Sequence record: OZ335964.1
Source of the DNA: a phage
Direction: 5' to 3' (one strand)
Length of the DNA stretch: 64,000 bases
The notes beneath the pieces were generated by a model. It searched no databases, had not been told where the DNA came from, and was given only the letters and a program-made list of their open reading frames with translations. How positions within the stretch are numbered: position 1 is the first letter of the stretch; every line of letters begins with the position of its first letter. The position numbers were made by a program, and so were the translations under genes. Below, in pieces: positions 23,533 through 52,508 of the stretch.

Positions 23533-23606
23533 ATTTGATTCTCCTGTAAAGTTGTATCTCGTCTTGATGAATATAGTATAGGGGATCTCGCGATCCCCGT
23601 CAAGCA
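23533..23606 (-). promoter_or_regulatory. early promoter-hairpin-leader cassette (PeSL-like)
   Basis: Minus strand: TTGACG - GGGGATCgcgaGATCCCC hairpin in 17-nt spacer - TATACT - leader - AGGAGAATCAAA - ATG. Confidence 0.6.
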
Positions 23607-23607
23607 T

Positions 23608-24156
23608 TTATTTTAAATTTTTTCGAATGTATTCAGACCATTCTCTGCCAGTAAGTTCGGTCCCATTCTGGAAACTGAAATACTCATACGGCATCGAGTC
23701 AAGATAAAACAGGATCATACATCGCGCCATATAATACCAATCACGATTAAAGTAAACTACGTTATCACCAGTACCATCAACCCCTTTATCATAACCATCG
23801 CGGGTACGGGCGACCCATTGAATAGTATCATTTTTCTCACGGATCGTAACAGGTTCCCAATATCCAGCACATCCAGCATGACCACACGAACAAGTAAGGA
23901 AATATTGACCTTTTGCTTTGTTGTCATCCCATTCACGATGGATTGGTTCGATCTCGTGAAACAGTGCTAAGCAATCATGATTATGCAACACTGGCTTACC
24001 ATCAATCAATGCATGGAATGTATACAAACGACCAGTAGACAAATAGCTATCCTCACGCTCAACCAGTTCAATAGCAATCTTTTTAGCTCGTTCTTTGTGT
24101 CGTTGTGCTTTACGCTTACGGTTTAATGATTTCATATTCACCTCACACATTATCAA
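23608..24156 (-). CDS. hypothetical protein (182 aa)
   Basis: Co-oriented ORF between nrdD and nrdG. Confidence 0.45.
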   Translation of the reverse strand: MIMCEVNMKSLNRKRKAQRHKERAKKIAIELVEREDSYLSTGRLYTFHALIDGKPVLHNHDCLALFHEIEPIHREWDDNKAKGQYFLTCSCGHAGCAGYWEPVTIREKNDTIQWVARTRDGYDKGVDGTGDNVVYFNRDWYYMARCMILFYLDSMPYEYFSFQNGTELTGREWSEYIRKNLK

Positions 24157-24695
24157 AGGTCGCGATATAGTACATTATGAAAATGAGAACTTGCATTACC
24201 AATATTGTAGATAATAAATTCTTCATCCGGCGCTTGCGCTACAAATTGAGTATGAGCAACCGCCACAACCTTAAAAATACGATCCGTGATCTTGTGTTTA
24301 ATTTCGGCTCCTACTTCCATAGGAACATATTCATGTGTTTCTGTTTCAGTCGCAAAACAGCCATCTTCTTCATAAGCACGAACAAATCGATCGCAATCAG
24401 TACGCTTAACAAATTCAAGAGTATACAATTCTCGTGAATTGTCGGTATAGACCAATACAGAATTATTATGATAGCGAATCACATACAGGTTATTATCATC
24501 GTCAATTACGCAAAAGCTACGGATTCCTTCGCCTATACTCCAGCAGATATTAACCACCGTTCCTCTAATAAAAAAACTTTCCTTTAAATTAAAACTAGTC
24601 AATGTGCTAGCGTGCATTTTAACAACAACACCATCGCCAATTTCCAGTTTACGAAGTTTAACTTCTTTGCTCAGTACACAAAACATCATCATCAT
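24153..24695 (-). CDS. hypothetical protein (180 aa)
   Basis: Co-oriented ORF directly downstream of a promoter cassette; stop overlaps start of next ORF. Confidence 0.45.
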   Translation of the reverse strand: MMMMFCVLSKEVKLRKLEIGDGVVVKMHASTLTSFNLKESFFIRGTVVNICWSIGEGIRSFCVIDDDNNLYVIRYHNNSVLVYTDNSRELYTLEFVKRTDCDRFVRAYEEDGCFATETETHEYVPMEVGAEIKHKITDRIFKVVAVAHTQFVAQAPDEEFIIYNIGNASSHFHNVLYRDL

Positions 24696-24753
24696 GTTGT
24701 CCTCTCGTTGTTTTCGATGTGAGCATTATACATTAGCTAATCATGTTGTCAAC
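24696..24753 (-). promoter_or_regulatory. sigma70-type early promoter with conserved leader
   Basis: Minus strand TTGACA-16 nt-TATAAT, then GAGAGGACAAC-ATG. Confidence 0.6.
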
Positions 24754-24757
24754 ACCC

Positions 24758-24790
24758 CAAAACGAAAAAGCCGACCCTTTCGGATCGGCT
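24758..24790 (-). terminator. rho-independent terminator after nrdD
   Basis: Minus strand AGCCGAUCC-GAAA-GGGUCGGCU followed by UUUUUCGUUUU. Confidence 0.65.
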
Positions 24791-24795
24791 AAAAA

Positions 24796-26702: not shown

Positions 26703-27197
26703 TTATTTTACCAGTTCTGCTAATTCTTTTTCCGCCGCTTCCAGTTCAGCTTTCAGTTGTTTGATCTCTTGTCGCTTCTTATTAGCGGCTTCCTGCTTAC
26801 TATTTCGGATAACCTGATCTAGATACAACTCCCAATCCTGAATATTTTTGATAATGTAGCCGTCAACGTTCAGAGCTTTAATATTAAGAACTTCTTCCAG
26901 CTTACTTAAAGAACGTTGTGTTTCTGGGAAGAAATAGTCATATTCACCTCGGTCAAACCAGTAGCTTATGCCAGCTTTATCTAAACGACGATGCAATTCA
27001 TAAAAATCTCTACCATCTTCGACGATGAGTTTGTCTACATCGCCATTACAGTTAACAGAGACTTTGAATCTAATATTATCAACCCCACCAAAAACATCAA
27101 TAAGGATAGTTCCGATCGTGTTATCCGCGCTTCCAGTATCCATAAAAGATTCTAGTTTTTCTTGATTAGTAACGTACCAAACATCTTGTTTCCACAT
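26703..27197 (-). CDS. paralog family B-related protein (164 aa)
   Basis: Beta-rich N-domain plus C-terminal coiled coil (KKRQEIKQLKAELEAAEKELAEL); leader GAGAGGATTATATTATG shared with neighbours. Confidence 0.45.
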   Translation of the reverse strand: MWKQDVWYVTNQEKLESFMDTGSADNTIGTILIDVFGGVDNIRFKVSVNCNGDVDKLIVEDGRDFYELHRRLDKAGISYWFDRGEYDYFFPETQRSLSKLEEVLNIKALNVDGYIIKNIQDWELYLDQVIRNSKQEAANKKRQEIKQLKAELEAAEKELAELVK

Positions 27198-27258
27198 AAT
27201 ATAATCCTCTCGTTGTTAAGTGGGAGTATTATAGCATACTCCCTTCGCATGTCAAGCA
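27198..27258 (-). promoter_or_regulatory. early promoter-hairpin-leader cassette (PeSL-like)
   Basis: TTGACA - 16 nt - TATAAT, with TATAAT inside loop of GGGAGUA/UACUCCC hairpin; stop codon of upstream gene lies inside the -35. Confidence 0.6.
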
Positions 27259-28430
27259 CTAACTTTTTTCTTTACTGCTTTCACCTTCTGGCGAATTGCT
27301 CGAATCTCTTCGATCTCTTTTTCAGTCTCTTTAACAATTTCTTTGCGATTCTGAATATCTGTATCGAGATTATCATCAAGTTTAGGCAGCATGTCAATCA
27401 AGAACTTTTTAAAGTCTTTCAGGTTTCTGATAACAGCACCTTCACCCATTACCGCCACCCCTACACCATCCGGCAGATCGCCAAACAGTTTAACCAGTTC
27501 AGACAGATGATCATGATCTTCTAGTGCTTCTTCCGGTTCAGATGGCAGTTCAACAAAGTTATAACGTTCATCATTGCTGATGATGTGATACCAGCAAAGC
27601 CCGAATGATTTCGGTGTATATTCTACACCATCAATTTCAACCGAGTCAACACTTCCATAATCATCTACTTTAGTTACCTTAAATCCTTGTCCCAGCTTTT
27701 GAACAATTTCAACAACATGACTTGATACAGTTTCAGCGGTAAACCAATATGGCAAATTATGCTGATTTGGCTTGTAGCGTTCACCTACTTTAAATCTCTG
27801 ACCAGCCGCTTGCATAGCATGAAATTGTTGTTTCGTGATTTCCGCGAAGTATTCAAATTCGCTACCATCAAACAAGCAATTCCATTGATCACAAAAACGA
27901 TCCGCCTTGACGGTTTCACCTTTCGCGGTGATCACGGTAGCTGATCCGTGCAATTCTTCTTCAACTAAAAAGCCATATTCGACAAAATCGACAAGTTTCA
28001 TGGCTTCTTTGTGCTCTGGATCATTCTCTCCCCAGAATCGCTTAAATTCTTGCAAACCTTCCGGGGTAAACGAATAACATTTACCTTTTTCAAAGTAAGT
28101 CGGCATTGCATCCTCTTTCTTGTTCATAGCTTCGTATGCCTCTTTTGAGATACGTTTAAAGTATTTGCGCTCATTGTGCATAATCATAGTAGCCCAATAA
28201 TAAACGATATCCTCAGCGGAATAAACTACATCTCCAGCTTCAATAGTAATAACATGACCGTGGTCATCTTTTTCTAATACTTTAAAGCCCTTTTCTACGA
28301 TTTCAGCAACCCGAATATGACCACGGCGCGAAGCATCGGTCAGAATAATTGAATAGCGAGAAAAGTCTAGAAACTCATCTTTACCGCCTTCACGGAATGC
28401 ATAGTAATGACCTTCAAAGAATTTAGCCAT
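27252..28430 (-). CDS. paralog family B protein with three tandem domains (392 aa)
   Basis: Three repeats of ~100-aa module (e.g. ...GFKVLEKDDHGHVITIEAGDVVY...HNERKYFKRISKEAYEAM); C-terminal coiled coil. Confidence 0.5.
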   Translation of the reverse strand: MAKFFEGHYYAFREGGKDEFLDFSRYSIILTDASRRGHIRVAEIVEKGFKVLEKDDHGHVITIEAGDVVYSAEDIVYYWATMIMHNERKYFKRISKEAYEAMNKKEDAMPTYFEKGKCYSFTPEGLQEFKRFWGENDPEHKEAMKLVDFVEYGFLVEEELHGSATVITAKGETVKADRFCDQWNCLFDGSEFEYFAEITKQQFHAMQAAGQRFKVGERYKPNQHNLPYWFTAETVSSHVVEIVQKLGQGFKVTKVDDYGSVDSVEIDGVEYTPKSFGLCWYHIISNDERYNFVELPSEPEEALEDHDHLSELVKLFGDLPDGVGVAVMGEGAVIRNLKDFKKFLIDMLPKLDDNLDTDIQNRKEIVKETEKEIEEIRAIRQKVKAVKKKVSA

Positions 28431-28492
28431 AATATAATCCTCTCGTTGTTTAGACGGGAGTATCTTACTACTCCCGTTTCATCATGTCAAGC
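28431..28492 (-). promoter_or_regulatory. early promoter-hairpin-leader cassette (PeSL-like)
   Basis: TTGACA - hairpin GGGAGUAguaagaUACUCCC - conserved leader GAGAGGATTATATT-ATG. Confidence 0.55.
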
Positions 28493-29067: not shown

Positions 29068-29340
29068 TCATTTCACTAATTGAACAGCACGAAACAGAAT
29101 GCGGTCACACGGAAGAAGCATAAATTCCCAACGCGGATCAAAGTCTTTAGCGGTATATGTTTTCCCATCAACCGAGATTTCACTTACATAACCAATAGGT
29201 GACACTTTAAGAATAGTAAATCCATTCTTGATGACTTCGTAGGTATCTTTCAATCCTTCGTAGTCATCCTCTAGGAAGTCTTTACGTGCTTGCTCAGATT
29301 TAAAAACATAGGCCACACCGGATTTAAACATCTTACGCAT
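29068..29340 (-). CDS. paralog family B single-domain protein (90 aa)
   Basis: ...NGFTILKVSPIGYVSEISVDGKTYTA... is a short version of the family B module. Confidence 0.45.
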   Translation of the reverse strand: MRKMFKSGVAYVFKSEQARKDFLEDDYEGLKDTYEVIKNGFTILKVSPIGYVSEISVDGKTYTAKDFDPRWEFMLLPCDRILFRAVQLVK

Positions 29341-29402
29341 TGTTGATTCTCCTTCTTGATTAGATGGGAGTATTTTACTACTCCCATTTCATGCTGTCAA
29401 CT
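29341..29402 (-). promoter_or_regulatory. early promoter-hairpin-leader cassette (PeSL-like)
   Basis: TTGACA - 17 nt containing GGGAGUA/UACUCCC hairpin - TAAAAT - AAGGAGAATCAACA-ATG. Confidence 0.6.
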
Positions 29403-29901: not shown

Positions 29902-30195
29902 TTAACCATTAATCTTGTTTTTGACTACAAAGGATCGGAACTCATCAAAGCCACCAATATAATCACCATTATAGAAAATCTGCGGCATGGTGGCAATAAC
30001 TTCTACCCCTGCGCGATCCTGAATATCGGCAATGATAGAATCAATCTTTACAGGGCGACCGTTTTCGTCAACACCATCATTAACCGGAATGTAGATGTAA
30101 GGGATCTTACGCGATTCACAAAGGCGCTTTGCATTCTGGCAATACTTACAGTTGTAACCTTCAAAACCAAAAATTTCTACCATATTATACCTCAA
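29902..30195 (-). CDS. nrdC: glutaredoxin/thioredoxin NrdC
   Basis: 97 aa; CKYC active site, ...NAKRL..., ...MPQIFYNGDYIGGFDEF... as in T4 thioredoxin. Confidence 0.75.
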   Translation of the reverse strand: MRYNMVEIFGFEGYNCKYCQNAKRLCESRKIPYIYIPVNDGVDENGRPVKIDSIIADIQDRAGVEVIATMPQIFYNGDYIGGFDEFRSFVVKNKING

Positions 30196-31004
30196 TCTAC
30201 GTTAGTTACATAAACTTCTTGTGTATCAGAAGACTTGCCTCCTGAACGATCTAGGCAATAGGTCTTATTCAACAGGACGCAGTTTAGATCATTCCTCTTG
30301 ATAAAGTCAAGAAGATGATCATTTACCTTTCCCTTATGATGCGTGACATTACTGATACCAAACTGAAAACCACGCACCATAATAGATTCCACCCACTGAT
30401 AGAATTTAATCTCTTCCTCGTCACTCCAGAACTTATTATATTCCGCAGAAGTGATAAGGTACGGCGGGTCCAAATAAACGAAATCGCCTGGCAAGATCTC
30501 GATCTCGTCATATCGTCCAGAAGTAAAATTGATTCGACCGTCTTTGTTTTCTTCTTTAAAATTCAGGACACGCTCTACCGCGTTTTCGTTAAAAGTCCGG
30601 CGACCAAAATTAGCATTAAATTCGCCCTTCCGGTTATGTCGGTTAATGTTGCTAAAACTATGCTGAATCAACACAAACAGCGATAGCGGATCTGGATTCT
30701 CGTTATACTTCTTACGGAATGTCATGTAAGCGTCTTTATCTTCGCGAGACAAACCATTCTCGGCAATAATCCGCTTGATCGTAGAAACCGGATCAGGACA
30801 CTCGTCAATGGCCTTGTAAGCGTCAATTAAACGATGGTCGTAGTCATTAGCCAGCACATCACCTTCGACGTACAGAGACACGCTCAAGCCACCACAAAAG
30901 GCATCGACAAAGCGGTTATAGTGCTTAGGGAAATACTTACTAACACCAGGCAATAACTTTTCCTTATTGCCCGTATAGGGAATTAAACCTAATGCTTTCT
31001 TCAT
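30192..31004 (-). CDS. dam: DNA adenine methyltransferase Dam
   Basis: 270 aa; FVDAFCGGLSVSL (AdoMet site) and DFVYLDPPYLITSAEYNKFWSDEEE (DPPY) near-identical in pattern to recalled T4 Dam. Confidence 0.9.
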   Translation of the reverse strand: MKKALGLIPYTGNKEKLLPGVSKYFPKHYNRFVDAFCGGLSVSLYVEGDVLANDYDHRLIDAYKAIDECPDPVSTIKRIIAENGLSREDKDAYMTFRKKYNENPDPLSLFVLIQHSFSNINRHNRKGEFNANFGRRTFNENAVERVLNFKEENKDGRINFTSGRYDEIEILPGDFVYLDPPYLITSAEYNKFWSDEEEIKFYQWVESIMVRGFQFGISNVTHHKGKVNDHLLDFIKRNDLNCVLLNKTYCLDRSGGKSSDTQEVYVTNVD

Positions 31005-32253: not shown

Positions 32254-32562
32254 TTATTTCACGTTAACGCCGTCATCAATCCAGCCGACGCTATTTGGTT
32301 TAACAGTTTTACCATAGGATGCATACTTAATCAAGCATGGTTTAACATCGTTATCAAATCTTCCTAAACGTACTCCAAAATCAGGAATATCCATGTATGC
32401 GGCTTTATATCCCCATGTGCCATATTCAGAATCAATCTCAACCGGACGGCCTTTAAAAGCATACACTACACCGTGACGGTCAACGATAACATAGCAATAG
32501 CCAGCCGGAAGATACACAGTTTCGCCGTAAACTTTAACTGGAGTAGCAGAAGAGATAAACAT
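32254..32562 (-). CDS. hypothetical protein (102 aa)
   Basis: Co-oriented ORF with GAGGATTATATT-ATG leader. Confidence 0.4.
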   Translation of the reverse strand: MFISSATPVKVYGETVYLPAGYCYVIVDRHGVVYAFKGRPVEIDSEYGTWGYKAAYMDIPDFGVRLGRFDNDVKPCLIKYASYGKTVKPNSVGWIDDGVNVK

Positions 32563-32631
32563 AATATAATCCTCACATCGTTCATTTGATGCGGTTATTA
32601 TAGGATAACCGCATTTTCATGTCAACAGTTT

Positions 32632-33006: not shown

Positions 33007-33229
33007 AGTATGCTTTTTCTACATACTCGCCATTGATCCAAGCGGCAGTAACAATCAGAGTGGTCCAGTTAGATCCGCTCTCAACGGTAAAGGTTTTAAT
33101 ACCCAGCTTCGCTGCTAAGTCGAACGCAAACCGGACGCAACCACGGCAGGAAGTGATATTGGAAGTTTTGATTTTAAAGCCACCGCGAGTTTTAGAAATT
33201 TCTACTTTAGCGAAAGACAGGTTGCTCAT
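32951..33229 (-). CDS. hypothetical protein (92 aa)
   Basis: ORF directly downstream of a promoter cassette with AGGAGAATCAAA-ATG. Confidence 0.45.
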   Translation of the reverse strand: MSNLSFAKVEISKTRGGFKIKTSNITSCRGCVRFAFDLAAKLGIKTFTVESGSNWTTLIVTAAWINGEYVEKAYFDIFYDYEEKCFYALQDM

Positions 33230-33302
33230 TTTGATTCTCCTTAAGAAAGTGTGTTTCGTTTTGATGTGTGTAGTATAGGGGATCGGTGATCCCCTGTCAA
33301 CA
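33230..33302 (-). promoter_or_regulatory. early promoter-hairpin-leader cassette (PeSL-like)
   Basis: TTGACA - GGGGAUCaccGAUCCCC (17-nt spacer hairpin) - TATACT - leader CAUCAAAACGAAACACAC - AGGAGAATCAAA-ATG. Confidence 0.65.
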
Positions 33303-35057: not shown

Positions 35058-35319
35058 TACATGCTTTTAATGCATCAGTCGCGGTGTCATAGCGAGTATT
35101 ATCATAGCACCAGTAACCATCGGTCAACTGATAAATCAATCCATCCCTTTTAGCTTCGATGAAAGATAACTCTTTGAAAGTTTCTACTTTCTTTGCTGAT
35201 ACTCCACGGTCACGGCGCTTATAGAGTTTAGCTAAAATGCGTTCAGCTTGTTCCTCTTTATCACCAGACAGATCCCAAATAATGTTGCGGATATGTTTGA
35301 TTAATTGTTCAGTGGTCAT
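35029..35319 (-). CDS. hypothetical protein (96 aa)
   Basis: Directly downstream of promoter cassette at 35320-35378. Confidence 0.4.
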   Translation of the reverse strand: MTTEQLIKHIRNIIWDLSGDKEEQAERILAKLYKRRDRGVSAKKVETFKELSFIEAKRDGLIYQLTDGYWCYDNTRYDTATDALKACNDHLRKTTV

Positions 35320-35378
35320 CTTTGATTCTCCTTAGTTGGTATGTGTGCATTATAGCACTATGACTTTCATTGTCAACA
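35320..35378 (-). promoter_or_regulatory. sigma70-type early promoter with conserved leader
   Basis: TTGACA - 16 nt - TATAAT (flanked by GUGC/GCAC mini-hairpin) - AAGGAGAATCAAAG-ATG. Confidence 0.6.
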
Positions 35379-35380
35379 AC

Positions 35381-35412
35381 TAAAAACAAAAAAGGCTACC
35401 CCTAAGGATAGC
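35381..35412 (-). terminator. rho-independent terminator
   Basis: Minus strand GGGCUAUCC-UUAGG-GGUAGCC followed by UUUUUUGUUUUU, right after stop of 35421..36221. Confidence 0.6.
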
Positions 35413-35420
35413 CCATAAAA

Positions 35421-36221
35421 TTACACGCGAGCACCGTAGATCGTGCCTACTTTATCCCAGCGAGGGGCATTGCCAGTAACAGCCTTACCAGCTGCACCAG
35501 CACCACTGGCATTATAGTTTGATGTACGAACGGCAGCACCACCAGCCGCACCAACGTTACCACCAGCACCACTCATGTTATTACCATCAACGGTTACTTT
35601 ACCACCTGCGGCGGTTAACGATGCATTACCACCATTACCACGACCACCACGACCACCTGTACCGAAAGGACGACCACCACCGCCGCCTGCAACGCCAGCT
35701 AATGTGAAGTTATAGTCTATGGACCATCCGCCGCCGCCACCGCCACCGCCAGCAATTGCACCATTATTCGTAATACGTAAGCGTGTACCGATGCCATTAT
35801 TGATCGCTGTACCCCCGGCGGTCGCACGAACTAAAGCATCTCCAGATCCACCACTAGACCCAGATCCGTTACCGCCACGACCATATACAGTGACGCCGGA
35901 ATTAATGATAAGAGTTACATATTCATTAGTTAATGAGCTAGGGAAATCCAGACACGGAACACCAGCAGAATTAGAAACAAGATCCCCGGTAATAGTAACT
36001 ACTACCGGAGTAGACCCCTGTGATTTTAGATAGTTAATCAGAGTATCTTTATTGTAGTTGTGGTTTGCACCAATGCTATAATGAATCTCTTTAGAGCGTC
36101 CGACCATCGCCGACATATACGCCGGACGACCTAAGCGAACAGCTTGCATTGCGGCGCTCATCCACCGTTGACCAGTCTCAGCAACAGCCGATGATCCTAC
36201 CCAACCTGCTTTAATTGCCAT
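35421..36221 (-). CDS. glycine-rich protein resembling T2-type gp38 tail-fibre adhesin
   Basis: 266 aa; N-terminus WVGSSAVAETGQRWMSAAMQAVRLG...IGANHNYN...VVVTITGDLVS...VYGRGGNG then poly-Gly runs (AIAGGGGGGGGW, GGGGGRPFGTGGRGG), C-terminal WDKVGTIYGARV; matches my recollection of gp38 adhesin architecture. No alignment run. Confidence 0.5.
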   Translation of the reverse strand: MAIKAGWVGSSAVAETGQRWMSAAMQAVRLGRPAYMSAMVGRSKEIHYSIGANHNYNKDTLINYLKSQGSTPVVVTITGDLVSNSAGVPCLDFPSSLTNEYVTLIINSGVTVYGRGGNGSGSSGGSGDALVRATAGGTAINNGIGTRLRITNNGAIAGGGGGGGGWSIDYNFTLAGVAGGGGGRPFGTGGRGGRGNGGNASLTAAGGKVTVDGNNMSGAGGNVGAAGGAAVRTSNYNASGAGAAGKAVTGNAPRWDKVGTIYGARV

Positions 36222-36275
36222 AAGGTTTCCTCACAAGAAAAGCCCCATTTAAGGGGCATTGATTGATAATATTAC

Positions 36276-36497
36276 TTAGATGATCTCTGCTTCACCATTC
36301 AGGAAGAAAGACCATGTTTTGTTAGGATAGCGAAGCGCCCATGATTCAGCAGTTTTAACACCAGCTTCGAACAATTGACGGCTGGTCACTTTAGCCATAC
36401 CATCTTCGATGGCAACGTTTTCAATAATCATCGGGTACTTAGCTCCACGCATGAAACCGAAGCCAGCGGAAGATTTGATAATTTTAACAGTTGCCAT
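36276..36497 (-). CDS. hypothetical protein (73 aa)
   Basis: Downstream of promoter cassette at 36498-36575. Confidence 0.4.
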   Translation of the reverse strand: MATVKIIKSSAGFGFMRGAKYPMIIENVAIEDGMAKVTSRQLFEAGVKTAESWALRYPNKTWSFFLNGEAEII

Positions 36498-36575
36498 TTT
36501 TGATTCTCCTAGAAAGTGTATCTCGTTTCGATGGGTGTATTATGCAATAACACCGGATCGCTGTCAACACTTTCT
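36498..36575 (-). promoter_or_regulatory. early promoter-hairpin-leader cassette (PeSL-like)
   Basis: TTGACA - 17 nt - CATAAT within GGUGUuAU/AUaACACC hairpin - leader CAUCGAAACGAGAUACAC - AGGAGAATCAAA-ATG. Confidence 0.6.
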
Positions 36576-37552: not shown

Positions 37553-37751
37553 TCTTCACGGTCTCCATAATTGTTTTGTAAGCCAGTTTAAGATGATCAC
37601 CGAAAAACTTTGCAGTGTTACCCTTCGGATCGCGAAGCATGGTTTCTACGATCTCATCGGCAGTAACAATTTCACCTTTCTTTGCTGCGTGTTCTACCAT
37701 ATACTTCAAAGTTTCTTCGGAAGCAAGTGCTGCGGCTACTGGATTAATCAT
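37542..37751 (-). CDS. hypothetical protein (69 aa)
   Basis: Downstream of promoter at 37752-37812. Confidence 0.4.
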   Translation of the reverse strand: MINPVAAALASEETLKYMVEHAAKKGEIVTADEIVETMLRDPKGNTAKFFGDHLKLAYKTIMETVKNAK

Positions 37752-37812
37752 TTTGGTTCTCCTTTGTTGTCGATGTGTGCATTATGCTATACCCTATTCT
37801 TGTTGTCAACAC
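37752..37812 (-). promoter_or_regulatory. sigma70-type early promoter with conserved leader
   Basis: TTGACA - 17 nt - CATAAT (GCAUaAUGC mini-hairpin) - leader - AGGAGAACCAAA-ATG. Confidence 0.6.
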
Positions 37813-37814
37813 CT

Positions 37815-37846
37815 AAAAACGAAAAAAGCCACCCTTTCGGATGGCT
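37815..37846 (-). terminator. rho-independent terminator (possibly bidirectional)
   Basis: AGCCAUCC-GAAA-GGGUGGCU then UUUUUUCGUUUUU on minus strand; plus strand also has hairpin + TTTTG. Confidence 0.65.
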
Positions 37847-37855
37847 TTTGATTAA

Positions 37856-43556: not shown

Positions 43557-43979
43557 TTATTGGTCCACTTTCAAAACAACAGCCGACATTTTACCCGCCA
43601 GTCGTTTTGGATTCTCTATAATCATTCGACAGCATAGACCGTGATATGGCTTGCCGTCTTCAATTAGGTCTACTGTCATCCCGATCCACATGTTACCGTC
43701 AGTAATTTCTAATCGATTAGGTCGGTCTTCCATTTTCAGGAAGTCGAAGATCTCCGGCAAACGAGTTTCTACCTTATTGAATAGTTCCATTGTCTTATGT
43801 TCATCGATATGACGATCGGTTAGACGGTCGATCATATGCGGACTAAAGCGAATGAAAATATACTCACCGTAACCATCATTCAAGCACTTTTCTTTGATCT
43901 GCGCATTGGTTTTGCGCATTTCGGTTTCGAAGAATCTACGCAGCTTACTACGGCGAACGTGTACATTAATTGTTTCCAT
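43557..43979 (-). CDS. regB: endoribonuclease RegB
   Basis: From internal Met: METINVHVRRSKLRRFFETE...RLEITDGNMWIGMTV...CCRMIIENPKRLAGKMSAVVLKV parallels recalled T4 RegB (...RLEITDGNLWLGFTV...CRMAIINSRRLPGKASKAVIKT). Confidence 0.75.
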   Translation of the reverse strand: METINVHVRRSKLRRFFETEMRKTNAQIKEKCLNDGYGEYIFIRFSPHMIDRLTDRHIDEHKTMELFNKVETRLPEIFDFLKMEDRPNRLEITDGNMWIGMTVDLIEDGKPYHGLCCRMIIENPKRLAGKMSAVVLKVDQ

Positions 43980-43980
43980 T

Positions 43981-44319
43981 TTATTCTCCTTTCTTAAACA
44001 AATTGCGAAGCCAGTATACAAACGGGATTTCTTTAAACTTGAACTTGTCAATAGTTAATTCTTTAGTAGCAAGATGAATACCATAAGCATCATGTGTCAC
44101 GATATGCCATTTTCTATAGCCCAAATGTGAACAACCGTCTGAATCTAGGTTAATAAGAGTTTCTCGCTCACTAGGATTATTTTTCCACAATTTTGTAACC
44201 GGGTCGCACATAATTCGACCTAGCGTACCATGAATAATCTCACAACGGTAAAGTTTTCCAGCAGTGAGATAGGCGCACCCGTCATAGTCGGTATAAACAA
44301 ACACTTCTTTAACACTCAT
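43981..44319 (-). CDS. paralog family C protein (start at MSVKEV)
   Basis: ...YTDYDGCAYLTAGKLYRC...DSDGCSHLGYRKWHIV; preceded by promoter cassette and SD. Confidence 0.45.
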   Translation of the reverse strand: MSVKEVFVYTDYDGCAYLTAGKLYRCEIIHGTLGRIMCDPVTKLWKNNPSERETLINLDSDGCSHLGYRKWHIVTHDAYGIHLATKELTIDKFKFKEIPFVYWLRNLFKKGE

Positions 44320-44380
44320 TTTAATACTCCTTTGTTGTTTCGATGGGGGTATATTACTACCCCCGATCATGTGTGTCAAC
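44320..44380 (-). promoter_or_regulatory. early promoter-hairpin-leader cassette (PeSL-like)
   Basis: TTGACA - 9 nt - GGGGGUAguaauauaCCCCC hairpin - leader CAUCGAAACAACA - AAGGAGTATTAAA-ATG. Confidence 0.6.
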
Positions 44381-45536: not shown

Positions 45537-45578
45537 AATTAAACCCTCAGTTGATTAAGAGATTGCATCATATCATCA

Positions 45579-45612
45579 TAAAACGAAAAAGCCAACCCTT
45601 TTCGGATTGGCT
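45579..45612 (-). terminator. rho-independent terminator
   Basis: AGCCAAUCC-GAAAA-GGGUUGGCU followed by UUUUUCGUUUU on minus strand. Confidence 0.65.
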
Positions 45613-45622
45613 TGATGAAAAA

Positions 45623-46722: not shown

Positions 46723-47112
46723 TTATTTTGGATCTGGGTATTTGCTGTGTGGCAATTGTAGATGAGGACCATCTTTAAACGATACCCAATCCCCACCCCA
46801 TTCAACAGGAACACCCAATTCTCGACCAGCTTGTTTAAATGCATCAGCGATCATGCGGTAATATTTCATGTTCCATGTATCCTTATCTTTCGGATACGCT
46901 ACAACGTCAACCGCGAAACCGTGAAGATGACGAGATTTCATAGTCTTAGATTTACCTTCCGCAACATATTTCTTTTGCGTTTCTAGACTACGCACACCTT
47001 CCGTAATACCAAAATCGACCGGAGTCAGTTCTAATGCACGATGAACGACTTTTACCAGGTCTGGATGTACACCAACAAGCCGATCTTTGCTTCTTTGAGA
47101 TAATTTAAACAT
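46723..47112 (-). CDS. peptidase M15-family cell-wall hydrolase (candidate endolysin)
   Basis: 129 aa; SRHLHGFAVDV (His...Asp zinc ligands) and DGPHLQL (third His) as in L-Ala-D-Glu/D-Ala-D-Ala peptidases; occupies the position of lysozyme e in T4 gene order. Confidence 0.6.
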   Translation of the reverse strand: MFKLSQRSKDRLVGVHPDLVKVVHRALELTPVDFGITEGVRSLETQKKYVAEGKSKTMKSRHLHGFAVDVVAYPKDKDTWNMKYYRMIADAFKQAGRELGVPVEWGGDWVSFKDGPHLQLPHSKYPDPK

Positions 47113-48947: not shown

Positions 48948-48948
48948 A

Positions 48949-49131: not shown

Positions 49132-49139
49132 AATATACC

Positions 49140-49466
49140 TTAGAAAGAAACAGTTTTCAAGAAATCCAGATTTTTAGTACCGAAAACAGAAAAGTAGTGT
49201 TTTCCTTTTTCGGTTTTAGAGAAAGCGATTGTCTTCTCTACATGGTGACGGAAGCCAGACAGACGATCACCCAGGTCAAGGCGGCAAGCGTAAGTAGTGC
49301 CGTTTTCGAAAGTAACCTCGATTTGAGTTTTGTCATATTCGCTTTCATAGGCTTTTGCTGCCGCGTCCTGTGCTTTACGCTCGAAGTCTTCGAAGTGGAA
49401 TACTTCGTTTGCGTTAGCGAATACAGAAGATTCAGAGAAGATAACTTTAACAGATACTGGTTTCAT
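49140..49466 (-). CDS. hypothetical protein (108 aa)
   Basis: Downstream of promoter cassette 49467-49545. Confidence 0.45.
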   Translation of the reverse strand: MKPVSVKVIFSESSVFANANEVFHFEDFERKAQDAAAKAYESEYDKTQIEVTFENGTTYACRLDLGDRLSGFRHHVEKTIAFSKTEKGKHYFSVFGTKNLDFLKTVSF

Positions 49467-49545
49467 TTTGATACTCCTTAGTAGTTCGTGTTTCGTTTCG
49501 ATGGGTGTATTATGCTATACACCCTCTCGCGTGTCAACAACTTTT
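49467..49545 (-). promoter_or_regulatory. early promoter-hairpin-leader cassette (PeSL-like)
   Basis: TTGACA - 17 nt - CATAAT inside GGGUGUA/UACACCC hairpin - leader CAUCGAAACGAAACACGAAC - AAGGAGTATCAAA-ATG. Confidence 0.65.
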
Positions 49546-49734: not shown

Positions 49735-49756
49735 AGTATCACCTCAACACTTAACG

Positions 49757-49951
49757 TTATTCAAACTCAAACGGTCTATTCAACCTATTGTAAAAGTACA
49801 TATAACAAGCAAAATTATGCTTTGGCTGTACCGTATCAGATAGACACGCTTTTACAGCCTCGCGGTCCGATGGGTCTACACCCTCAGCTTTAAGTAATGC
49901 TAAAATCTGGTTATAGCGTACTCTTAGTTGTACTAATGGTTTATCCCCCAT
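49757..49951 (-). CDS. hypothetical protein (64 aa)
   Basis: Co-oriented ORF. Confidence 0.35.
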   Translation of the reverse strand: MGDKPLVQLRVRYNQILALLKAEGVDPSDREAVKACLSDTVQPKHNFACYMYFYNRLNRPFEFE

Positions 49952-49960
49952 ATTACCCCC

Positions 49961-50188
49961 TTATAGTTGATCAGCAATGTATGCGGTGCATTTGCGGAGT
50001 TTAGCCATAGCACCACCTTTCATGTCGCTTGCGCCTACAATGTTCATGATCTCTAAGCGATCAGCCGGATTCAGTCTAGTAGCCCAGATCTGGTTAGCCA
50101 GTTCCATTTTACCCATCTGCGGTTCCATCTCAAACATTTCACGCTCAAAGTCGATAATTTCTTTTGCTGCGTCTTTAAAGTTAATCAT
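49961..50188 (-). CDS. hypothetical protein (75 aa)
   Basis: Downstream of promoter cassette 50189-50248. Confidence 0.4.
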   Translation of the reverse strand: MINFKDAAKEIIDFEREMFEMEPQMGKMELANQIWATRLNPADRLEIMNIVGASDMKGGAMAKLRKCTAYIADQL

Positions 50189-50248
50189 TTTGGTCCTCCC
50201 GTTTCGTTGATGGTTGTATTGTAGGGGAGTTATCCTCCCCTGTCAACA
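50189..50248 (-). promoter_or_regulatory. early promoter-hairpin-leader cassette (PeSL-like)
   Basis: TTGACA - GGGGAGgauaaCUCCCC (17-nt spacer hairpin) - TACAAT - leader - GGGAGGACCAAA-ATG. Confidence 0.6.
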
Positions 50249-50254
50249 CTTTTA

Positions 50255-50440
50255 TCAGAAATATGCAATATAGTTTGCCAGTCCTACAGAGTCATCATTC
50301 GGCATTGCTTTTACCGCCAGTTCAAACCCTGCTTCAACTTTCTGTTTAGCGGATTCTTCGTTATAACCCCAGATGACCAGAATAGCTACTACGTTTTCTT
50401 TGCTTACTGCTTTCAGTGCTTTAGTGATGCGACGTGCCAT
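50255..50440 (-). CDS. hypothetical protein (61 aa)
   Basis: Downstream of promoter cassette 50441-50517. Confidence 0.4.
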   Translation of the reverse strand: MARRITKALKAVSKENVVAILVIWGYNEESAKQKVEAGFELAVKAMPNDDSVGLANYIAYF

Positions 50441-50517
50441 AATTTGATTCTCCGTTTAAGAAAGTGTGTTTCGTTTCGATGGGTGTATTATGCTATAGGC
50501 GTGATCTGGTGTCAACA
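50441..50517 (-). promoter_or_regulatory. early promoter-hairpin-leader cassette (PeSL-like)
   Basis: TTGACA - ~17 nt - CATAAT/ATAATA - leader CAUCGAAACGAAACACAC - GGAGAATCAAA-ATG. Confidence 0.6.
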
Positions 50518-50540
50518 ACTTTTTTAAAAAATTTTAGGCA

Positions 50541-50569
50541 ATAAAAAAGCCACTCCGAAGAGTGGCTTA
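50541..50569 (-). terminator. rho-independent terminator
   Basis: AGCCACUC-UUCG-GAGUGGCU followed by UUUUUUAUU on minus strand. Confidence 0.6.
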
Positions 50570-50575
50570 TAGGGA

Positions 50576-50716
50576 AGGTAGCGAATCTTCCTTGTCTCCA
50601 ACCTGCTAGCGGCCTAGCAAGTGAATGCTTTAGCGTACCGGATCACCCCATACGCTGCAATAAATGCGGCTAGGTGACGTCCAAATCATTCTAACCGCGC
50701 TGTCTTTAGTTCACTA
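50576..50716 (-). ncRNA. candidate small structured RNA (ORF-free 140-nt interval)
   Basis: No ORF on either strand; several compact hairpins (GGAAG...CUUCC; GCUAG-gccg-CUAGC; GCGUA...UACGC; GCGGUUAG...CUAGCCGC); a terminator lies just downstream on the minus strand; T4 carries tRNAs/small stable RNAs at the syntenic e-57B interval. No tRNA T-loop signature found. Confidence 0.3.
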
Positions 50717-50935
50717 TTATTTATATCGCTTTCTCTCGCGACGTTTTTGATCTTCTTCCTTGATAGAGTTAAATGCATCAAAAAGACACATGACACTGAT
50801 AATGAACATAACCGTATTTTCTACGATATCCCACGGCTTCGCATCAGTACAGATCCCCCAAACGGTAAGAAATGCAAATAGTGCAGAAGAGATCACAAGC
50901 ATGATACTTGCTAAGATATAAAAAGTCATTTTCAT
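50717..50935 (-). CDS. small membrane protein (72 aa)
   Basis: Two TM helices, basic C-terminus. Confidence 0.4.
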   Translation of the reverse strand: MKMTFYILASIMLVISSALFAFLTVWGICTDAKPWDIVENTVMFIISVMCLFDAFNSIKEEDQKRRERKRYK

Positions 50936-51126
50936 GGTTTTACCTCAATTCTTCGATATTCATCACACATCCACGCAGTAAGCAAGAATCCCAGCACATA
51001 AGCAACAAAATACGTTAATGCTTCTTCTGGTTCTGTGCTGTGTATCATCATTAAACCAGCTAGAACGGTCTTAACAATTACATTTAAAATAATTAGCCAC
51101 GCAAATAATTTCATCGTTTGCCCCAT
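50932..51126 (-). CDS. small membrane protein (64 aa)
   Basis: Two TM helices. Confidence 0.4.
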   Translation of the reverse strand: MGQTMKLFAWLIILNVIVKTVLAGLMMIHSTEPEEALTYFVAYVLGFLLTAWMCDEYRRIEVKP

Positions 51127-51350
51127 TTCGGTCGAGTCTTTTCAAACTTATACATTCCGTAACAATCTCGAATCATCCACGTAACAAGAGCACCAGTCAA
51201 CACAGACAATACACAGAAGAAGTAAAACGGTCCGGTTGCATTATCAACATGAGCAAGCCAGGTAAAGAAAACACATGCTAAGAATGTGAAGAACATCATA
51301 AAACACAAGAAAGCAAAATATTTTATGCTACTCATAGCGCCACCATACAA
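51111..51350 (-). CDS. small membrane protein (79 aa)
   Basis: Two TM helices. Confidence 0.4.
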   Translation of the reverse strand: MYGGAMSSIKYFAFLCFMMFFTFLACVFFTWLAHVDNATGPFYFFCVLSVLTGALVTWMIRDCYGMYKFEKTRPKWGKR

Positions 51351-51438
51351 CAGATCATAAGAAACCCCAACGCAATAAGAATTGCATCAAATTTAGTGAA
51401 CTCAGGTCCACCTATCAACATCATTCGTTCCTGTTCAT

Positions 51439-51681
51439 TCATAGATCACAGAGCCATCTTAAAGCACCACATAAAGCGAGCAGAATACTAGGTATAAAAG
51501 AGACCAAAACAAGTTCGCAAAAATCATCTAAGGTAACACCGGAATAGCTACCTACTGTAACAACACCGATCATCAGACACAGAAAGAAAACAAATGCAAT
51601 CAGAAACAAAGTATTGCTAAACAGTTTAGTGATCATTAGACACCCCACGACGATCAATTTCAAAAACTTTTTTATCATCAA
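51439..51681 (-). CDS. small membrane protein (80 aa)
   Basis: Three hydrophobic stretches. Confidence 0.4.
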   Translation of the reverse strand: MMIKKFLKLIVVGCLMITKLFSNTLFLIAFVFFLCLMIGVVTVGSYSGVTLDDFCELVLVSFIPSILLALCGALRWLCDL

Positions 51682-51829
51682 CGAAGCATGTCACAACTGC
51701 CTCGTTGACTTCCGCAAATTGTTGTGTTACCCACTTAAGGTCAGATCGAAACAATGTTTTGTTAATAACAAATGTTTTACCGCTCTTATCCTTACCCATA
51801 AATTTTGCTTTAACCATATCCAATTCCAT
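51626..51829 (-). CDS. hypothetical protein (67 aa)
   Basis: Co-oriented ORF. Confidence 0.35.
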   Translation of the reverse strand: MELDMVKAKFMGKDKSGKTFVINKTLFRSDLKWVTQQFAEVNEAVVTCFVDDKKVFEIDRRGVSNDH

Positions 51830-51838
51830 ATTATCACC

Positions 51839-51997
51839 TTATTTGCTAATCGCTAAACCCAATCCGAAGAGAGCACCCGATGCTACAGTATACCCGAAAG
51901 TTTCAAATGCAGTAAAGATATCTAAGCCACCAGCTAACAGAGTTGCAGTAAACAGAGTACCAGCTACGAACATAAAAGTTTTACCGATAAATTTCAT
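51839..51997 (-). CDS. small membrane protein (52 aa; below ORF-track cutoff)
   Basis: Reverse translation MKFIGKTFMFVAGTLFTATLLAGGLDIFTAFETFGYTVASGALFGLGLAISK; immediately preceded by conserved SD and promoter cassette. Confidence 0.4.
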   Translation of the reverse strand: MKFIGKTFMFVAGTLFTATLLAGGLDIFTAFETFGYTVASGALFGLGLAISK

Positions 51998-52058
51998 TTT
52001 GATTCTCCTTTCGTTTGTTTGTGGGGGTATCTTACTACCCCCGTTTCATGTTGTCAAC
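51998..52058 (-). promoter_or_regulatory. early promoter-hairpin-leader cassette (PeSL-like)
   Basis: TTGACA - 9 nt - GGGGGUAguaagaUACCCCC hairpin - leader - AAGGAGAATCAAA-ATG. Confidence 0.6.
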
Positions 52059-52063
52059 TGTTT

Positions 52064-52438
52064 TTAAGAAAATTTTACTTCGTCTACAATGTCTTTCATG
52101 ACATTGATTTCCATTCCGGTCAGAACACGTTGGAACATGTGCTGCACATACGCTTTCAGATATTCATTTGATGGCTTGCTATCAAAAGTCTTTTTAGTAT
52201 AGTAGTCATCACCGAAAGCTACTGTAATTACATTTTCGTCGTCGTTCCAAGCGATATAAGCAAATTTGCCGTTATCCCAGAAGCGAGCACTAATTGCTAC
52301 TTTTGTTGAATCGAATCCTACTTCGCTGTGAGATTCAAGAACTACTTGCGTGCCAGTTTCTTTATGAATGTAGTAGCGGGATACTAAGTCAAAGTTACGA
52401 GTGTAGTGACATTCGAATTTATCTTTAAACATCATCAT
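52064..52438 (-). CDS. hypothetical protein (~124 aa; start at MMMFKDK)
   Basis: SD GGAGAATCAAAA lies at 52441-52452, so the triple-ATG at 52430-52438 is the start, not the upstream Met of the track ORF. Confidence 0.45.
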   Translation of the reverse strand: MMMFKDKFECHYTRNFDLVSRYYIHKETGTQVVLESHSEVGFDSTKVAISARFWDNGKFAYIAWNDDENVITVAFGDDYYTKKTFDSKPSNEYLKAYVQHMFQRVLTGMEINVMKDIVDEVKFS

Positions 52439-52440
52439 TT

Positions 52441-52508
52441 TTGATTCTCCTAGTGTGTTTCGTTTCGATATGTGCATTATGATATAGTCGTTTATGGTTG
52501 TCAACACC
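52441..52508 (-). promoter_or_regulatory. sigma70-type early promoter with conserved leader
   Basis: TTGACA - 17 nt - CATAAT - leader CAUAUCGAAACGAAACACAC - AGGAGAATCAAAA. Confidence 0.6.

Follow-up and report, generated by a model that had tools for sequence, protein, structure and literature searches.

Seventeen promoter cassettes, very probably PeSLs, and their stem-loops in the genome of an RB49-like phage

We analyzed a 64,000-nucleotide stretch of phage DNA from sequence record OZ335964.1 (the window). The window belongs to a Krischvirus, an RB49-like T4-type coliphage, and is 93–97% identical to JK32, Phi1, JSE and RB49. A preliminary description had listed at least 15 copies of a promoter–hairpin–leader cassette. 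All 15 positions given there were found to be the last base before a minus-strand start codon. With a cassette profile, nhmmer detected 16 strong minus-strand matches (E <= 2e-8) within 23,533-52,526, which are the 15 copies and one overlooked copy with its -35 at 32,625. As the profile was built from the cassettes, its members match by construction, and the informative result is that no further comparable match was detected in the rest of the window. Weak matches were observed at 16,179 (E = 3e-3) and 2,524. The 16 strong matches, at a density of 16 copies per 29 kb, and the divergent copy at 16,122–16,179 make a total of 17 cassettes. No Rfam family was detected in the window. The cassettes and the regB gene are listed below; the name PeSL (promoter-early stem-loop) in the list stands for an identity that we consider very probable.

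16122..16179, minus strand: divergent class-A cassette beyond the range of the preliminary description (E = 3e-3); TTGACG, spacer hairpin GCGGGGA-gaaa-TCCCCGT (MFE -12.9, z -3.1), TATACT, Shine-Dalgarno GGAGG, ATG.
23530..23603, minus strand: class-A PeSL; TTGACG, spacer hairpin GGGGATC-gcga-GATCCCC (23581-23598), TATACT, leader AUCAAGACGAGAUAC, Shine-Dalgarno AGGAGAAUCAAA, ATG.
24693..24790, minus strand: class-C PeSL without an embedded hairpin; TTGACA-16-TATAAT preceded by an intrinsic terminator with T-run (24769-24790); leader AUCGAAAACAACG, Shine-Dalgarno GAGAGGA, ATG.
27195..27255, minus strand: class-B PeSL; TTGACA-16-TATAAT, hairpin GGGAGTAT-gctata-ATACTCCC (27222-27243) overlapping the -10; TGA stop of the upstream gene within the -35.
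28428..28490, minus strand: class-B PeSL; hairpin ACGGGAGTA-gtaaga-TACTCCCGT (28454-28477) over the -10 TAAGAT; upstream TGA stop within the -35.
29338..29400, minus strand: class-B PeSL; hairpin ATGGGAGTA-gtaaaa-TACTCCCAT (29364-29387) over the -10 TAAAAT; A>G in Phi1 and GEC-3S retains a U-G pair.
32560..32625, minus strand: class-B PeSL, the overlooked copy (E = 3e-10); TTGACA-17-TATAAT, unrelated 10-bp stem ATGCGGTTAT-cctata-ATAACCGCAT (32589-32614).
33227..33300, minus strand: class-A PeSL; TTGACA, hairpin AGGGGATC-acc-GATCCCCT (33277-33295), TATACT, leader AUCAAAACGAAACACAC, Shine-Dalgarno AGGAGAAUCAAA; core as in phi1 PeSL206/205.
35317..35414, minus strand: class-C PeSL; terminator 35393-35414 with T-run, TTGACA-16-TATAAT, Shine-Dalgarno AGGAGAAUCAAA; in G2248 a class-A PeSL stands in its place, with loss of gp38.
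36495..36567, minus strand: degenerate class-B PeSL; 3' arm ATACACCC retained, 5' arm decayed (GGTGTTAT), promoter and leader AUCGAAACGAGAUACAC intact; MFE -8.3 kcal/mol, z = -1.2.
37749..37849, minus strand: class-C PeSL; terminator 37824-37849 (-16.6 kcal/mol) with T-run, TTGACA-17-CATAAT, leader AUCGACAACAAAGG.
43557..43979, minus strand: regB endoribonuclease gene (Pfam REGB_T4, E = 1.9e-48).
44317..44379, minus strand: class-B PeSL heading the regB-containing operon; hairpin GGGGGTA-gtaata-TACCCCC (44345-44364).
49464..49537, minus strand: class-B PeSL; hairpin GGGTGTAT-agcata-ATACACCC (49503-49524), leader AUCGAAACGAAACACG; best nhmmer match (E = 1e-14).
50186..50246, minus strand: class-A PeSL; spacer hairpin AGGGGAG-gataa-CTCCCCT (50223-50241), -10 TACAAT.
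50438..50568, minus strand: PeSL with upstream terminator 50547-50568 and T-run; TTGACA-17-CATAAT, 3' arm ACACCC alone left, hairpin not formed (z +0.7), exact leader CAUCGAAACGAAACACAC.
51995..52057, minus strand: class-B PeSL; TTGACAACATGAAAC, hairpin GGGGGTA-gtaaga-TACCCCC (52023-52042) over the -10 TAAGAT.
52436..52541, minus strand: class-C PeSL; terminator 52521-52541 with T-run, TTGACA-17-CATAAT, leader AUCGAAACGAAACACAC, Shine-Dalgarno AGGAGAAUCAAA.

All 17 copies carry a near-consensus sigma-70 promoter, which scores 10-12 of 12 with a spacer of 16-17 nt. The promoter module described earlier was thus found in every one of the 15 claimed copies, with TTGAC(A/G) as the -35 and TAnnnT or CATAAT as the -10. 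In every copy, the 20 nt preceding the -35 are rich in A/T (AAAAAGTTG-type). The stop codon of the upstream gene lies 0-18 nt before the -35 or within it; the overlap with the -35 hexamer that had been noted for several copies was detected in two (-35 at 27255 and 28490), and in most others the stop is 0-9 nt upstream. At the 3' end, the Shine-Dalgarno and the start codon of the downstream gene were found in 17/17 copies. A single Shine-Dalgarno sequence had been proposed; AGGAGAATCAAA (<=2 mismatches) is present in 11 copies, and the remainder have GAGAGGATTATATTATG-type sites. The orthologs of the downstream genes in RB49, Phi1 and JSE are mostly annotated as "hypothetical protein".

The stem-loop is located in the spacer in four copies, over the -10 in seven and upstream of the -35 in five, and it is degenerate in one. 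Thus, a GC-rich hairpin of 7–10 bp is embedded in 11 of the 17 promoters. Each of the stem sequences quoted previously was present as given. However, not every claimed copy contains an embedded hairpin: it was confirmed in nine of the 15 (-35 at 23603, 27255, 28490, 29400, 33300, 44379, 49537, 50246 and 52057), whereas the copy at 36567 is degenerate and those at 24752, 35376, 37809, 50515 and 52504 have an upstream terminator instead. Since two cassettes have a degenerate hairpin or no intact hairpin nearby, the promoter does not require the hairpin.

A hairpin with a stem of 7 bp or more, including four or more G-C pairs, was detected in 11/17 promoters, whereas such hairpins occur in 1.7% of 40-nt windows of background sequence (binomial P = 3e-16). 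The minimum free energies of the hairpins lie between -12.8 and -15.8 kcal/mol, with z-scores from -2.5 to -4.4. Eight distinct 7-bp stem cores were found, and each arm pairs with its own partner at 77/77 positions, compared with 49 +/- 4.6 when arms were permuted. None of 20,000 permutations reached 77, although the choice of the copies as hairpins makes this test partly circular; the independent checks are the background frequency and the substitutions among orthologs. MAFFT aligned the class-B hairpins in two registers and gave no single column structure, and structure-anchored counts and permutations were therefore used. Across eight genomes, 7 of 158 stem columns were variable, compared with 20 of 76 loop and other spacer columns (Fisher P = 3e-6), so that the stem columns are about 6-fold less variable. 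In the promoter hexamers, 1 of 132 columns was variable. Among the stem changes, two are A>G substitutions that lead to U-G pairing in the sense RNA. A search for more divergent orthologs for covariation found none of intermediate distance, the Krischvirus relatives all being at least 91% identical. These results show that the stem pairing is demonstrably under selection, in agreement with the earlier proposal that pairing is kept while the stems differ.

The five upstream elements (class C) are textbook rho-independent terminators, in which a GC-rich stem of 9-11 bp closes a GNRA-like loop and a T-run follows, with 6-9 T in the ten nucleotides after the hairpin; they sit 15-30 nt upstream of the -35. 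In contrast, the 11 embedded hairpins lack the U-tract of an intrinsic terminator. The ten nucleotides after the hairpin contain 0-2 T in nine of them and 5 T in two class-A copies (-10 TATACT). Therefore, canonical intrinsic termination is not predicted for class B, and judged from sequence, a terminator role of most embedded hairpins is not established. Instead, the embedded hairpins might be 3'-end stabilisers or processing barriers, at which upstream mRNAs, whether read-through or processed, would end and be shielded from 3' exonucleases while RNA polymerase continues. The difference in U-run between class-A/B hairpins and class-C elements is in line with such a function, as are the location of the hairpin 5-25 nt past the upstream stop codon and selection that acts on pairing and not on sequence. 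However, the PeSL211/210 stem-loop has been reported to cut lacZ expression as strongly as rrnB T1 (PMC2839356), which fits termination or strong polarity better, and in class A the -10 (UAUACU/UAUAAU), which immediately follows the stem, could function as a weak U/A tract. We consider a purely stabilising function rather unlikely. The published terminator assay concerned one class-A stem-loop alone, and its readout was downstream lacZ, not RNA 3' ends (PMC2839356).

Taken overall, the best explanation of the cassettes is that they are PeSLs of RB49-group T4-type phages, and we regard this identity as very probable. The element class is already known; it was described by Arbiol et al. 2010 (PMC2839356) in the same phage group, and Comeau et al. 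2014 (PMC4122927) extended it to further T4-like phages. A PeSL is defined by a sigma-70 promoter (TTGACA-N17-TATAAT), an AT-rich upstream tract that usually includes the stop codon of the upstream gene, and a stable stem-loop, often G(n)-loop-C(n), at any of five positions relative to the promoter, with the downstream gene's Shine-Dalgarno and start codon at the 3' end; PeSLs occur in hyperplastic regions, mostly before small ORFs of unknown function (PMC2839356). Every one of these sequence-level features was found in the cassettes. Furthermore, 16/16 copies are positionally orthologous in RB49, Phi1, JSE, GEC-3S, G2248, JK32 and pEJ01. The match to RB49-group PeSLs that had been suggested from the sequence is thus upheld. 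In the copy at 33,300, the stem is that of PeSL211/210 and the 37-nt promoter core is identical to that of phi1 PeSL206/205, and the sequences of these two PeSLs match the window copies 33,300 and 23,603. A promoter activity of ~13,000 Miller units was reported for phi1 PeSL206/205 (PMC2839356). The mapped 5' ends of RB49 early transcripts fit the promoter consensus (Desplats et al. 2002, as cited in PMC1524935). The window cassettes and the RB49/phi1 PeSLs share genus, genomic positions, architecture and stem-loop position classes and do not differ in kind, although the window cassettes have minor sequence variants of their own and, in this 30-kb region, are fixed and not visibly mobile.

One feature extends beyond the known PeSLs, namely the broad occurrence of the leader start. 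The sequence AUCGAAACGAAAC was detected at a fixed spacing after the -10 in some 500 phage genomes that belong to many families, always 6 nt downstream and behind a C-rich discriminator. It was found in Krischvirus, Slopekvirus, Pseudotevenvirus, Chrysonvirus and KVP40-like phages, in Drexlerviridae (T1-likes), Ounavirinae and lambdoid nutL-type leaders, and also in phages of Vibrio, Aeromonas, Yersinia and Pseudomonas. What follows is either a Shine-Dalgarno or a structured leader of about 200 nt, and the motif is present either way. In 596 Gb of bacterial DNA, the leader start occurred at chance level only. A 35-nt leader query gave no match in 5,426 E. coli genomes, where only matches of at least about 19 nt are reportable at that database size. 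No Rfam family was found for the lambdoid leaders, and no description of the leader start was found in the searchable literature, in which string matches were to unrelated primers only. Tentatively, we propose that the first 13-18 nt of the transcript, AUCGAAACGAAAC[ACAC], are not a Krischvirus repeat but an initial transcribed sequence that is conserved at strong early promoters in unrelated gamma-proteobacterial phages. Its distribution may point to a role directed at the host machinery, either during initiation or at the 5' end of the RNA, in promoter escape, protection of the 5' end or binding of a factor. In addition or instead, it may reflect horizontal transfer of promoter cassettes among phage families.

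A partial likeness to the T7 promoters A1, A2 and A3, which are also strong sigma-70 early promoters, was observed. The A1 transcript starts with AUCGA..., 7 nt after the -10 and after CC, the start being annotated at the A of ATCGA, and the A3 transcript starts with AUGAAACGAC. The sequence TTGACAACATGAAG is common to T7 A2 and A3 and to the cassettes at 52,057 and 24,752, and TAAGATAC is shared with A2. However, no GC hairpin is embedded in the T7 promoters, and their product is one long early transcript instead of many short units.

These pieces of cassette sequence in T7 speak for another explanation, in which the cassettes are independently optimised promoters and terminators, compact by genome economy; their likeness would be convergence on RNA polymerase optima, and there would be no mobile or recombining family. 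The same combination of -10, C-rich discriminator and AUCGAAACGAAAC start was found in 85 distinct upstream contexts in unrelated phage families, as expected from convergence. The behaviour of the cassettes among relatives also agrees with it: none of the 16 copies changes position across the eight genomes, and of about 11 indels a single one is PeSL-linked (chance expectation 0.8). About five of the others are homing-endonuclease genes, inserted in relatives at 17,201, 25,788, 30,197, 45,551-45,572 and 46,738-46,765, and the remainder are intragenic or paralog events. Convergence is nevertheless unlikely. The cassette paralogs cross-match at 75-84% identity over 70-105 bp, and this likeness includes non-consensus leader stretches. 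In addition, PeSL-to-PeSL mini-circles are supported by published PCR evidence (PMC2839356). In the sole PeSL-linked event, G2248 has another PeSL instead of the gp38 module, and the junction lies within the PeSL leader, in agreement with the crossover site reported between the -10 and the ATG (PMC2839356). The earlier suggestion that PeSLs drive modular shuffling rests on the literature, with this single instance added here. A 2.1-kb presence/absence polymorphism at 37,854-39,981 looked PeSL-bounded at first; it was rejected as PeSL-mediated because in RB49, Phi1 and JSE a 712-aa ORF has lost an internal segment while both gene ends are kept.

Finally, it is very unlikely that the inverted repeats work as DNA, either as operators of dimeric phage or host proteins or as cruciform or supercoiling-sensitive promoter modulators: although the class-A stems are perfect palindromes between -35 and -10, two of them with two GATC (Dam) sites each, and the class-B 3' arm coincides with the C-rich discriminator, a promoter element, eight unrelated stems with varied positions and loop sizes cannot be the operator of a single protein, the class-B loop is the asymmetric -10 itself, and the two ortholog substitutions give G-U in the sense RNA and an A-C mismatch on the other strand, a point that is weak because one outer-pair change runs the opposite way.

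The Shine-Dalgarno of nine cassettes, GGAGAAUCAAA, fits the RegB/S1 consensus GGAGRAYARAA (Durand et al. 2006; PMC1702504) at 10/11 positions, and regB's own Shine-Dalgarno, GGAGAAUAAAA, matches it at 11/11. With at most one mismatch, the consensus was detected ten times in the window, each time at a minus-strand translation start (nine PeSLs and regB). The sequence features of RegB/S1 target sites are present, namely GGAG with an A-rich stretch, unstructured leaders and regB in the genome. As in the cassettes, the T4 sites are 11-nt single-stranded sites at early-gene Shine-Dalgarnos. However, position 8 of the cassette site is C, whereas A is strongly preferred in T4 (PMC1702504), which counts against the match, and the RB49-type RegB is divergent. 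Going by sequence, we infer that regB may be the trans-acting partner of the GGAG Shine-Dalgarno of the cassettes.

If the cassettes act as PeSLs, host RNA polymerase would use the sigma-70-type early promoter right after infection, a function known from the literature for an identical core. Transcription would probably start at an A 6-7 nt after the -10, preceded by the C-rich discriminator. The RNA would begin with AUC(G/A)AAAC..., and its leader, about 25-40 nt long, would be unstructured, rich in A and C and poor in U, ending in the RegB/S1-like site, at which phage RegB would later shut off these early messages. The hairpin, whether it occupies the spacer or covers the -10 and discriminator, adjoins the predicted +1. 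Since it would end at about -1, it is expected to be missing from the cassette's own transcript. It would be present only in read-through RNA from the upstream gene, the stop codon of which lies 0-25 nt before it. There, the hairpin may act as an attenuator or terminator and/or a 3'-end stabiliser and thereby insulate adjacent early units; in five cassettes, an ordinary terminator (hairpin and U-run) directly upstream of the -35 would do the same job. Because the copies have 70-105 bp in common at the identity given above, they could also be substrates for homologous recombination, as in the literature model.

Our analysis provides a confirmation and a clean inventory of a published element class in its defining phage group. 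The fixed positions in eight genomes temper the model of mobile cassettes. The RegB-like Shine-Dalgarno, if it is a real site, would tie PeSLs to the circuit that shuts off early mRNA. If truly undescribed, the leader start would be a testable handle on what sets phage early promoters and transcripts apart.

Pieces of 5 kb and 25 kb from the region matched 74 phage records at 93-97% identity, all of them RB49-like coliphages of the genus Krischvirus (JK32, Phi1, JSE, RB49, GEC-3S and others). The GC content of the window is ~40%, and its GC skew indicates minus-strand transcription to ~58 kb. The preliminary description had placed at least 15 promoter-hairpin-leader cassettes here, and 135 nt around each of its 15 coordinates were taken for inspection. 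At all 15 sites, TTGAC(A/G) was followed, after 16-17 nt of spacer, by a -10-like hexamer, then by an A/C-rich leader and by a Shine-Dalgarno sequence with ATG. The cassette sites were top-ranked in a consensus promoter scan (10-12 of 12), nearly throughout on the minus strand; a separate scan of the window gave 59 minus-strand and 8 plus-strand sites scoring at least 10/12. An nhmmer profile made from 17 cassettes (named by their -35 coordinate) was then run over the window. Sixteen matches at E <= 2e-8 were detected, on the minus strand only (23,533-52,526), namely the 15 described copies and one that had been missed (-35 at 32,625). Weak matches appeared at 16,179 and 2,524, and no comparable match to the profile was detected elsewhere in the window.

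PeSLs (promoter-early stem-loops) were defined in phi1 and RB49 by Arbiol et al. 2010 (PMC2839356). They consist of a sigma-70 consensus promoter, an AT-rich upstream tract, a G(n)-loop-C(n) stem-loop at one of five possible positions relative to the promoter, and a Shine-Dalgarno sequence with ATG at the end. About 51-52 occur per genome, mainly in hyperplastic regions ahead of ORFans; promoter activity of PeSL206/205 was strong in the assay, and the PeSL211/210 stem-loop decreased lacZ comparably to rrnB T1 (PMC2839356). According to Nolan et al. 2006 (PMC1524935), the predicted early-promoter consensus of RB49 agrees with mapped 5' ends. The phi1 206/205 core TTGACAGGGGATCACCGATCCCCTATACTACACACAT is identical in the window copy at 33,300, and the phi1 211/210 stem (GGGGATC/GATCCCC) is that of copies 23,603 and 33,300. 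Positional orthologues of all 16 copies were found in 7/7 relatives (RB49, Phi1, JSE, GEC-3S, G2248, JK32 and pEJ01). Sequence comparison thus establishes the proposed match to the PeSLs of RB49-group phages, an element class that had been described before.

The cassettes were sorted by the position of the hairpin.

Hairpin positions in the cassettes
16,179; 23,603; 33,300; 50,246, minus strand: hairpin in the spacer (class A, four copies)
27,255; 28,490; 29,400; 32,625; 44,379; 49,537; 52,057, minus strand: hairpin over the -10 and discriminator (class B, seven copies)
24,752; 35,376; 37,809; 50,515; 52,504, minus strand: ordinary terminator just 5' of the -35 in place of an embedded hairpin (class C, five copies)

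Stems of 7 bp or more, including 4 or more G-C pairs, were present in 11/17 cassette promoters, compared with just 1.7% of 40-nt background windows (binomial P = 3e-16). The hairpin in or around the spacer or -10 that had been described was found in these 11 promoters, and not in the five with an upstream terminator. The 3' arm (ACACCC) alone is retained in copies 36,567 and 50,515. The embedded hairpins have an MFE of -12.8 to -15.8 kcal/mol (z = -2.5 to -4.4 against dinucleotide shuffles). Within the next 10 nt, the terminators of the five class-C copies are followed by 6-9 T, 9/11 embedded hairpins by 0-2 T, and two class-A hairpins by 5 T, supplied by the -10 TATACT. The class-A stems GGGGATC...GATCCCC (23,581-23,598; 33,277-33,295) contain two GATC (Dam) sites each; the phage encodes Dam (ORF 30,192-31,004, an orthologue of the annotated RB49 dam).

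Eight different 7-bp cores occur among the 11 hairpins, and over all 11 together the arms pair with their own partners at 77/77 positions. When arms were swapped between copies, 49 +/- 4.6 pairs were formed, and 77 was reached in 0/20,000 permutations. Since this test is partly circular, it was complemented by an independent one on orthologues. When the window and the seven relatives were aligned with MAFFT, stem columns outside the hexamers were variable at 7/158 positions, whereas loop and other spacer columns were variable at 20/76 (Fisher P = 3e-6); promoter hexamer columns were variable at 1/132. The rare stem substitutions either affect the ends of the stems or replace A by G, which yields U-G pairs in the sense RNA. 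The permutations and the low stem variation among the eight genomes support the earlier claim of hairpin covariation.

The promoter is near-consensus, and transcription would preferentially begin at the A that lies 6 nt past the -10, behind CCC. The same order, CC|AUCGA, is seen at the annotated start site of T7 A1. The 3' arm of the hairpin ends at about -1 relative to the predicted start, so that the hairpin cannot form in the cassette's own RNA. It would form solely in read-through RNA coming from the upstream gene. The upstream stop codon, said to be within the -35 in several copies, is there in two and 0-18 nt upstream in the rest. A read-through-only hairpin with a stop codon nearby fits the published attenuator/terminator role. 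Since class-B hairpins have no U-tract, termination at class B is presumptive, and the same feature favours a live alternative, that these hairpins are 3'-end stabilisers rather than terminators.

The cassette Shine-Dalgarno sequence GGAGAAUCAAA agrees with the RegB/S1 consensus GGAGRAYARAA (PMC1702504) at 10/11 positions. Ten matches with at most one mismatch were found in the window, all at minus-strand translation starts; nine are PeSL Shine-Dalgarno sequences and one is that of regB itself. The latter, GGAGAAUAAAA (43,979-43,989), matches perfectly, whereas RB49 has GGAUAAUAAAA at the same position. The identity of regB was confirmed by Pfam (E = 1.9e-48). RegB is mentioned in neither PeSL paper (Arbiol et al. 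2010; Comeau et al. 2014).

Further elements were observed, some outside the range first described.

Additional elements on the minus strand
~2,484-2,524; 4,680-4,754; 6,000-6,065; 11,330-11,388: promoter-like sites, hairpin covering the -10 or lying downstream of it
17,200-17,286: candidate half-PeSL; terminator with T-run, -10-like box and PeSL-type leader CATCGAAAACGAAGAGAGGA, no -35
45,540-45,613: candidate half-PeSL; terminator with T-run, then -10-like box, no -35
4,679; 27,209; 28,442; 29,065; 31,447; 32,574; 35,030; 48,742: conserved second translation-initiation block GAGGATTATA(TTATG), eight occurrences

The promoter-like sites, such as that at 11,360 (GGGGAGT-gtaaat-ACTCCCC, then GTTTT after the -10), may be extra PeSL classes. 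The two candidates without a -35 are possibly degraded 'half' PeSLs, a form reported by Comeau et al. 2014 (PMC4122927). The GAGGATTATA(TTATG) block is found at internal genes as well as behind PeSL promoters.

Among the eight genomes, ~11 indel events were found at 16-55 kb, and homing-endonuclease genes account for ~5 (about half).

Homing-endonuclease genes in relatives
17,201; 25,788; 30,197; 45,551-45,572; 46,738-46,765: insertion of a 530-760-bp gene (HNH or AP2-HNH)

Two of these sites are directly downstream of terminators resembling half-PeSLs. Two other events are paralog duplications or replacements, and in one more a 712-aa ORF has lost an internal segment. This ORF (37,856-39,994, minus strand) is intact in the window phage, JK32 and G2248, and is a 190-330-bp remnant with both gene ends kept in RB49, Phi1 and JSE; GEC-3S and pEJ01 have the same gap. 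Its single Pfam match, Ig_3, is sub-threshold (E = 0.008). Only one event is PeSL-linked: in G2248, the gp38 adhesin module (window 35,344-36,269) is missing, and its place is taken by a different class-A PeSL (19,290-19,420 of G2248 locus L005). The substitute PeSL, TTGACACGGGGAGAAATCCCCGTATAAT, resembles the window copy at 16,179. The junction lies within the leader CATACCAACTAAGGAGAATCAAA, which agrees with the published mini-circle crossover site between -10 and ATG (PMC2839356). Since 1 of ~11 is about the chance expectation, the region is neutral on a general role of PeSLs in shuffling.

The exact leader 18-mer CATCGAAACGAAACACAC was found in 23 IMG/VR contigs, mostly non-Krischvirus; identified carriers are the T1-like phage ESCO41 and Klebsiella phage KP15. 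Bacterial genomes totalling 596 Gb contained it 13 times against ~17 expected by chance, in random contexts save one T1-like contig. This 46.7-kb contig (L044, NZ_VSMK01000220.1, 'Nitratidesulfovibrio liaohensis') equals the T1-like coliphage contig L017 over ~100 nt around the leader, and probably represents phage sequence that contaminated the assembly or was mis-binned. When 50,697 phage genomes were searched by blastn with a 35-nt query, 1,506 places in 514 records were matched, intergenic nearly throughout, and the reversed-query control matched 9 records only. The hosts were Escherichia, Klebsiella, Vibrio, Enterobacter, Cronobacter, Yersinia, Erwinia, Citrobacter, Aeromonas, Salmonella and Pseudomonas. 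With its fixed 6-nt spacing behind the -10, the leader start (C)ATCGAAACGAAAC occurs in the genomes of ~500 phages that belong to many unrelated families and have gamma-proteobacterial hosts.

Leader start and its carriers
Window 49,486-49,503; 50,464-50,481; 52,453-52,470; outside loci L009-L031, L046-L053, L054-L170: leader start (C)ATCGAAACGAAAC and variants
L055, L056, L067, L073, L104, L130 and others (IMG/VR); Yersinia phage vB_YenM_06.16-1: lambdoid-type leader

In eight unrelated genomes, the motif is preceded by a sigma-70-like promoter and a C-rich discriminator. Among the IMG/VR matches listed, a promoter scoring at least 8/12 precedes it in 73/119, compared with 1.5% of random positions, and the -10 of these promoters nearly always ends 6 nt before the A; at least 85 upstream contexts are distinct. 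T7 A2 and A3 have TTGACAACATGAAG in common with cassettes 52,057 and 24,752 (window 52,045-52,057 and 24,740-24,752; T7 380-1000, L045), and A2 also shares TAAGATAC with cassettes. The T7 A1 and A3 transcript starts, AUCGA and AUGAAACGAC, both resemble the PeSL leader.

In lambdoid phages, the same start is followed by a ~200-nt structured leader with boxA instead of a Shine-Dalgarno sequence. In the temperate lambdoids, AUCGAAACGAAACAUCGA heads this multi-hairpin leader, which contains a boxA-like GCUGCUUAUUUAACAA and adjoins cI and an antitermination gene (nutL-like); comparison of these leaders with Rfam gave no match. The cross-family leader motif, for which literature searches gave no description, is the sole part of these findings that may be new. 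Since the lambdoids have the same start without a Shine-Dalgarno sequence, the element appears to be tied to initiation or to the RNA 5' end, not to translation. Candidate roles of the leader start are promoter escape, given the effects of the initial transcribed region at strong phage promoters, or 5'-end protection.
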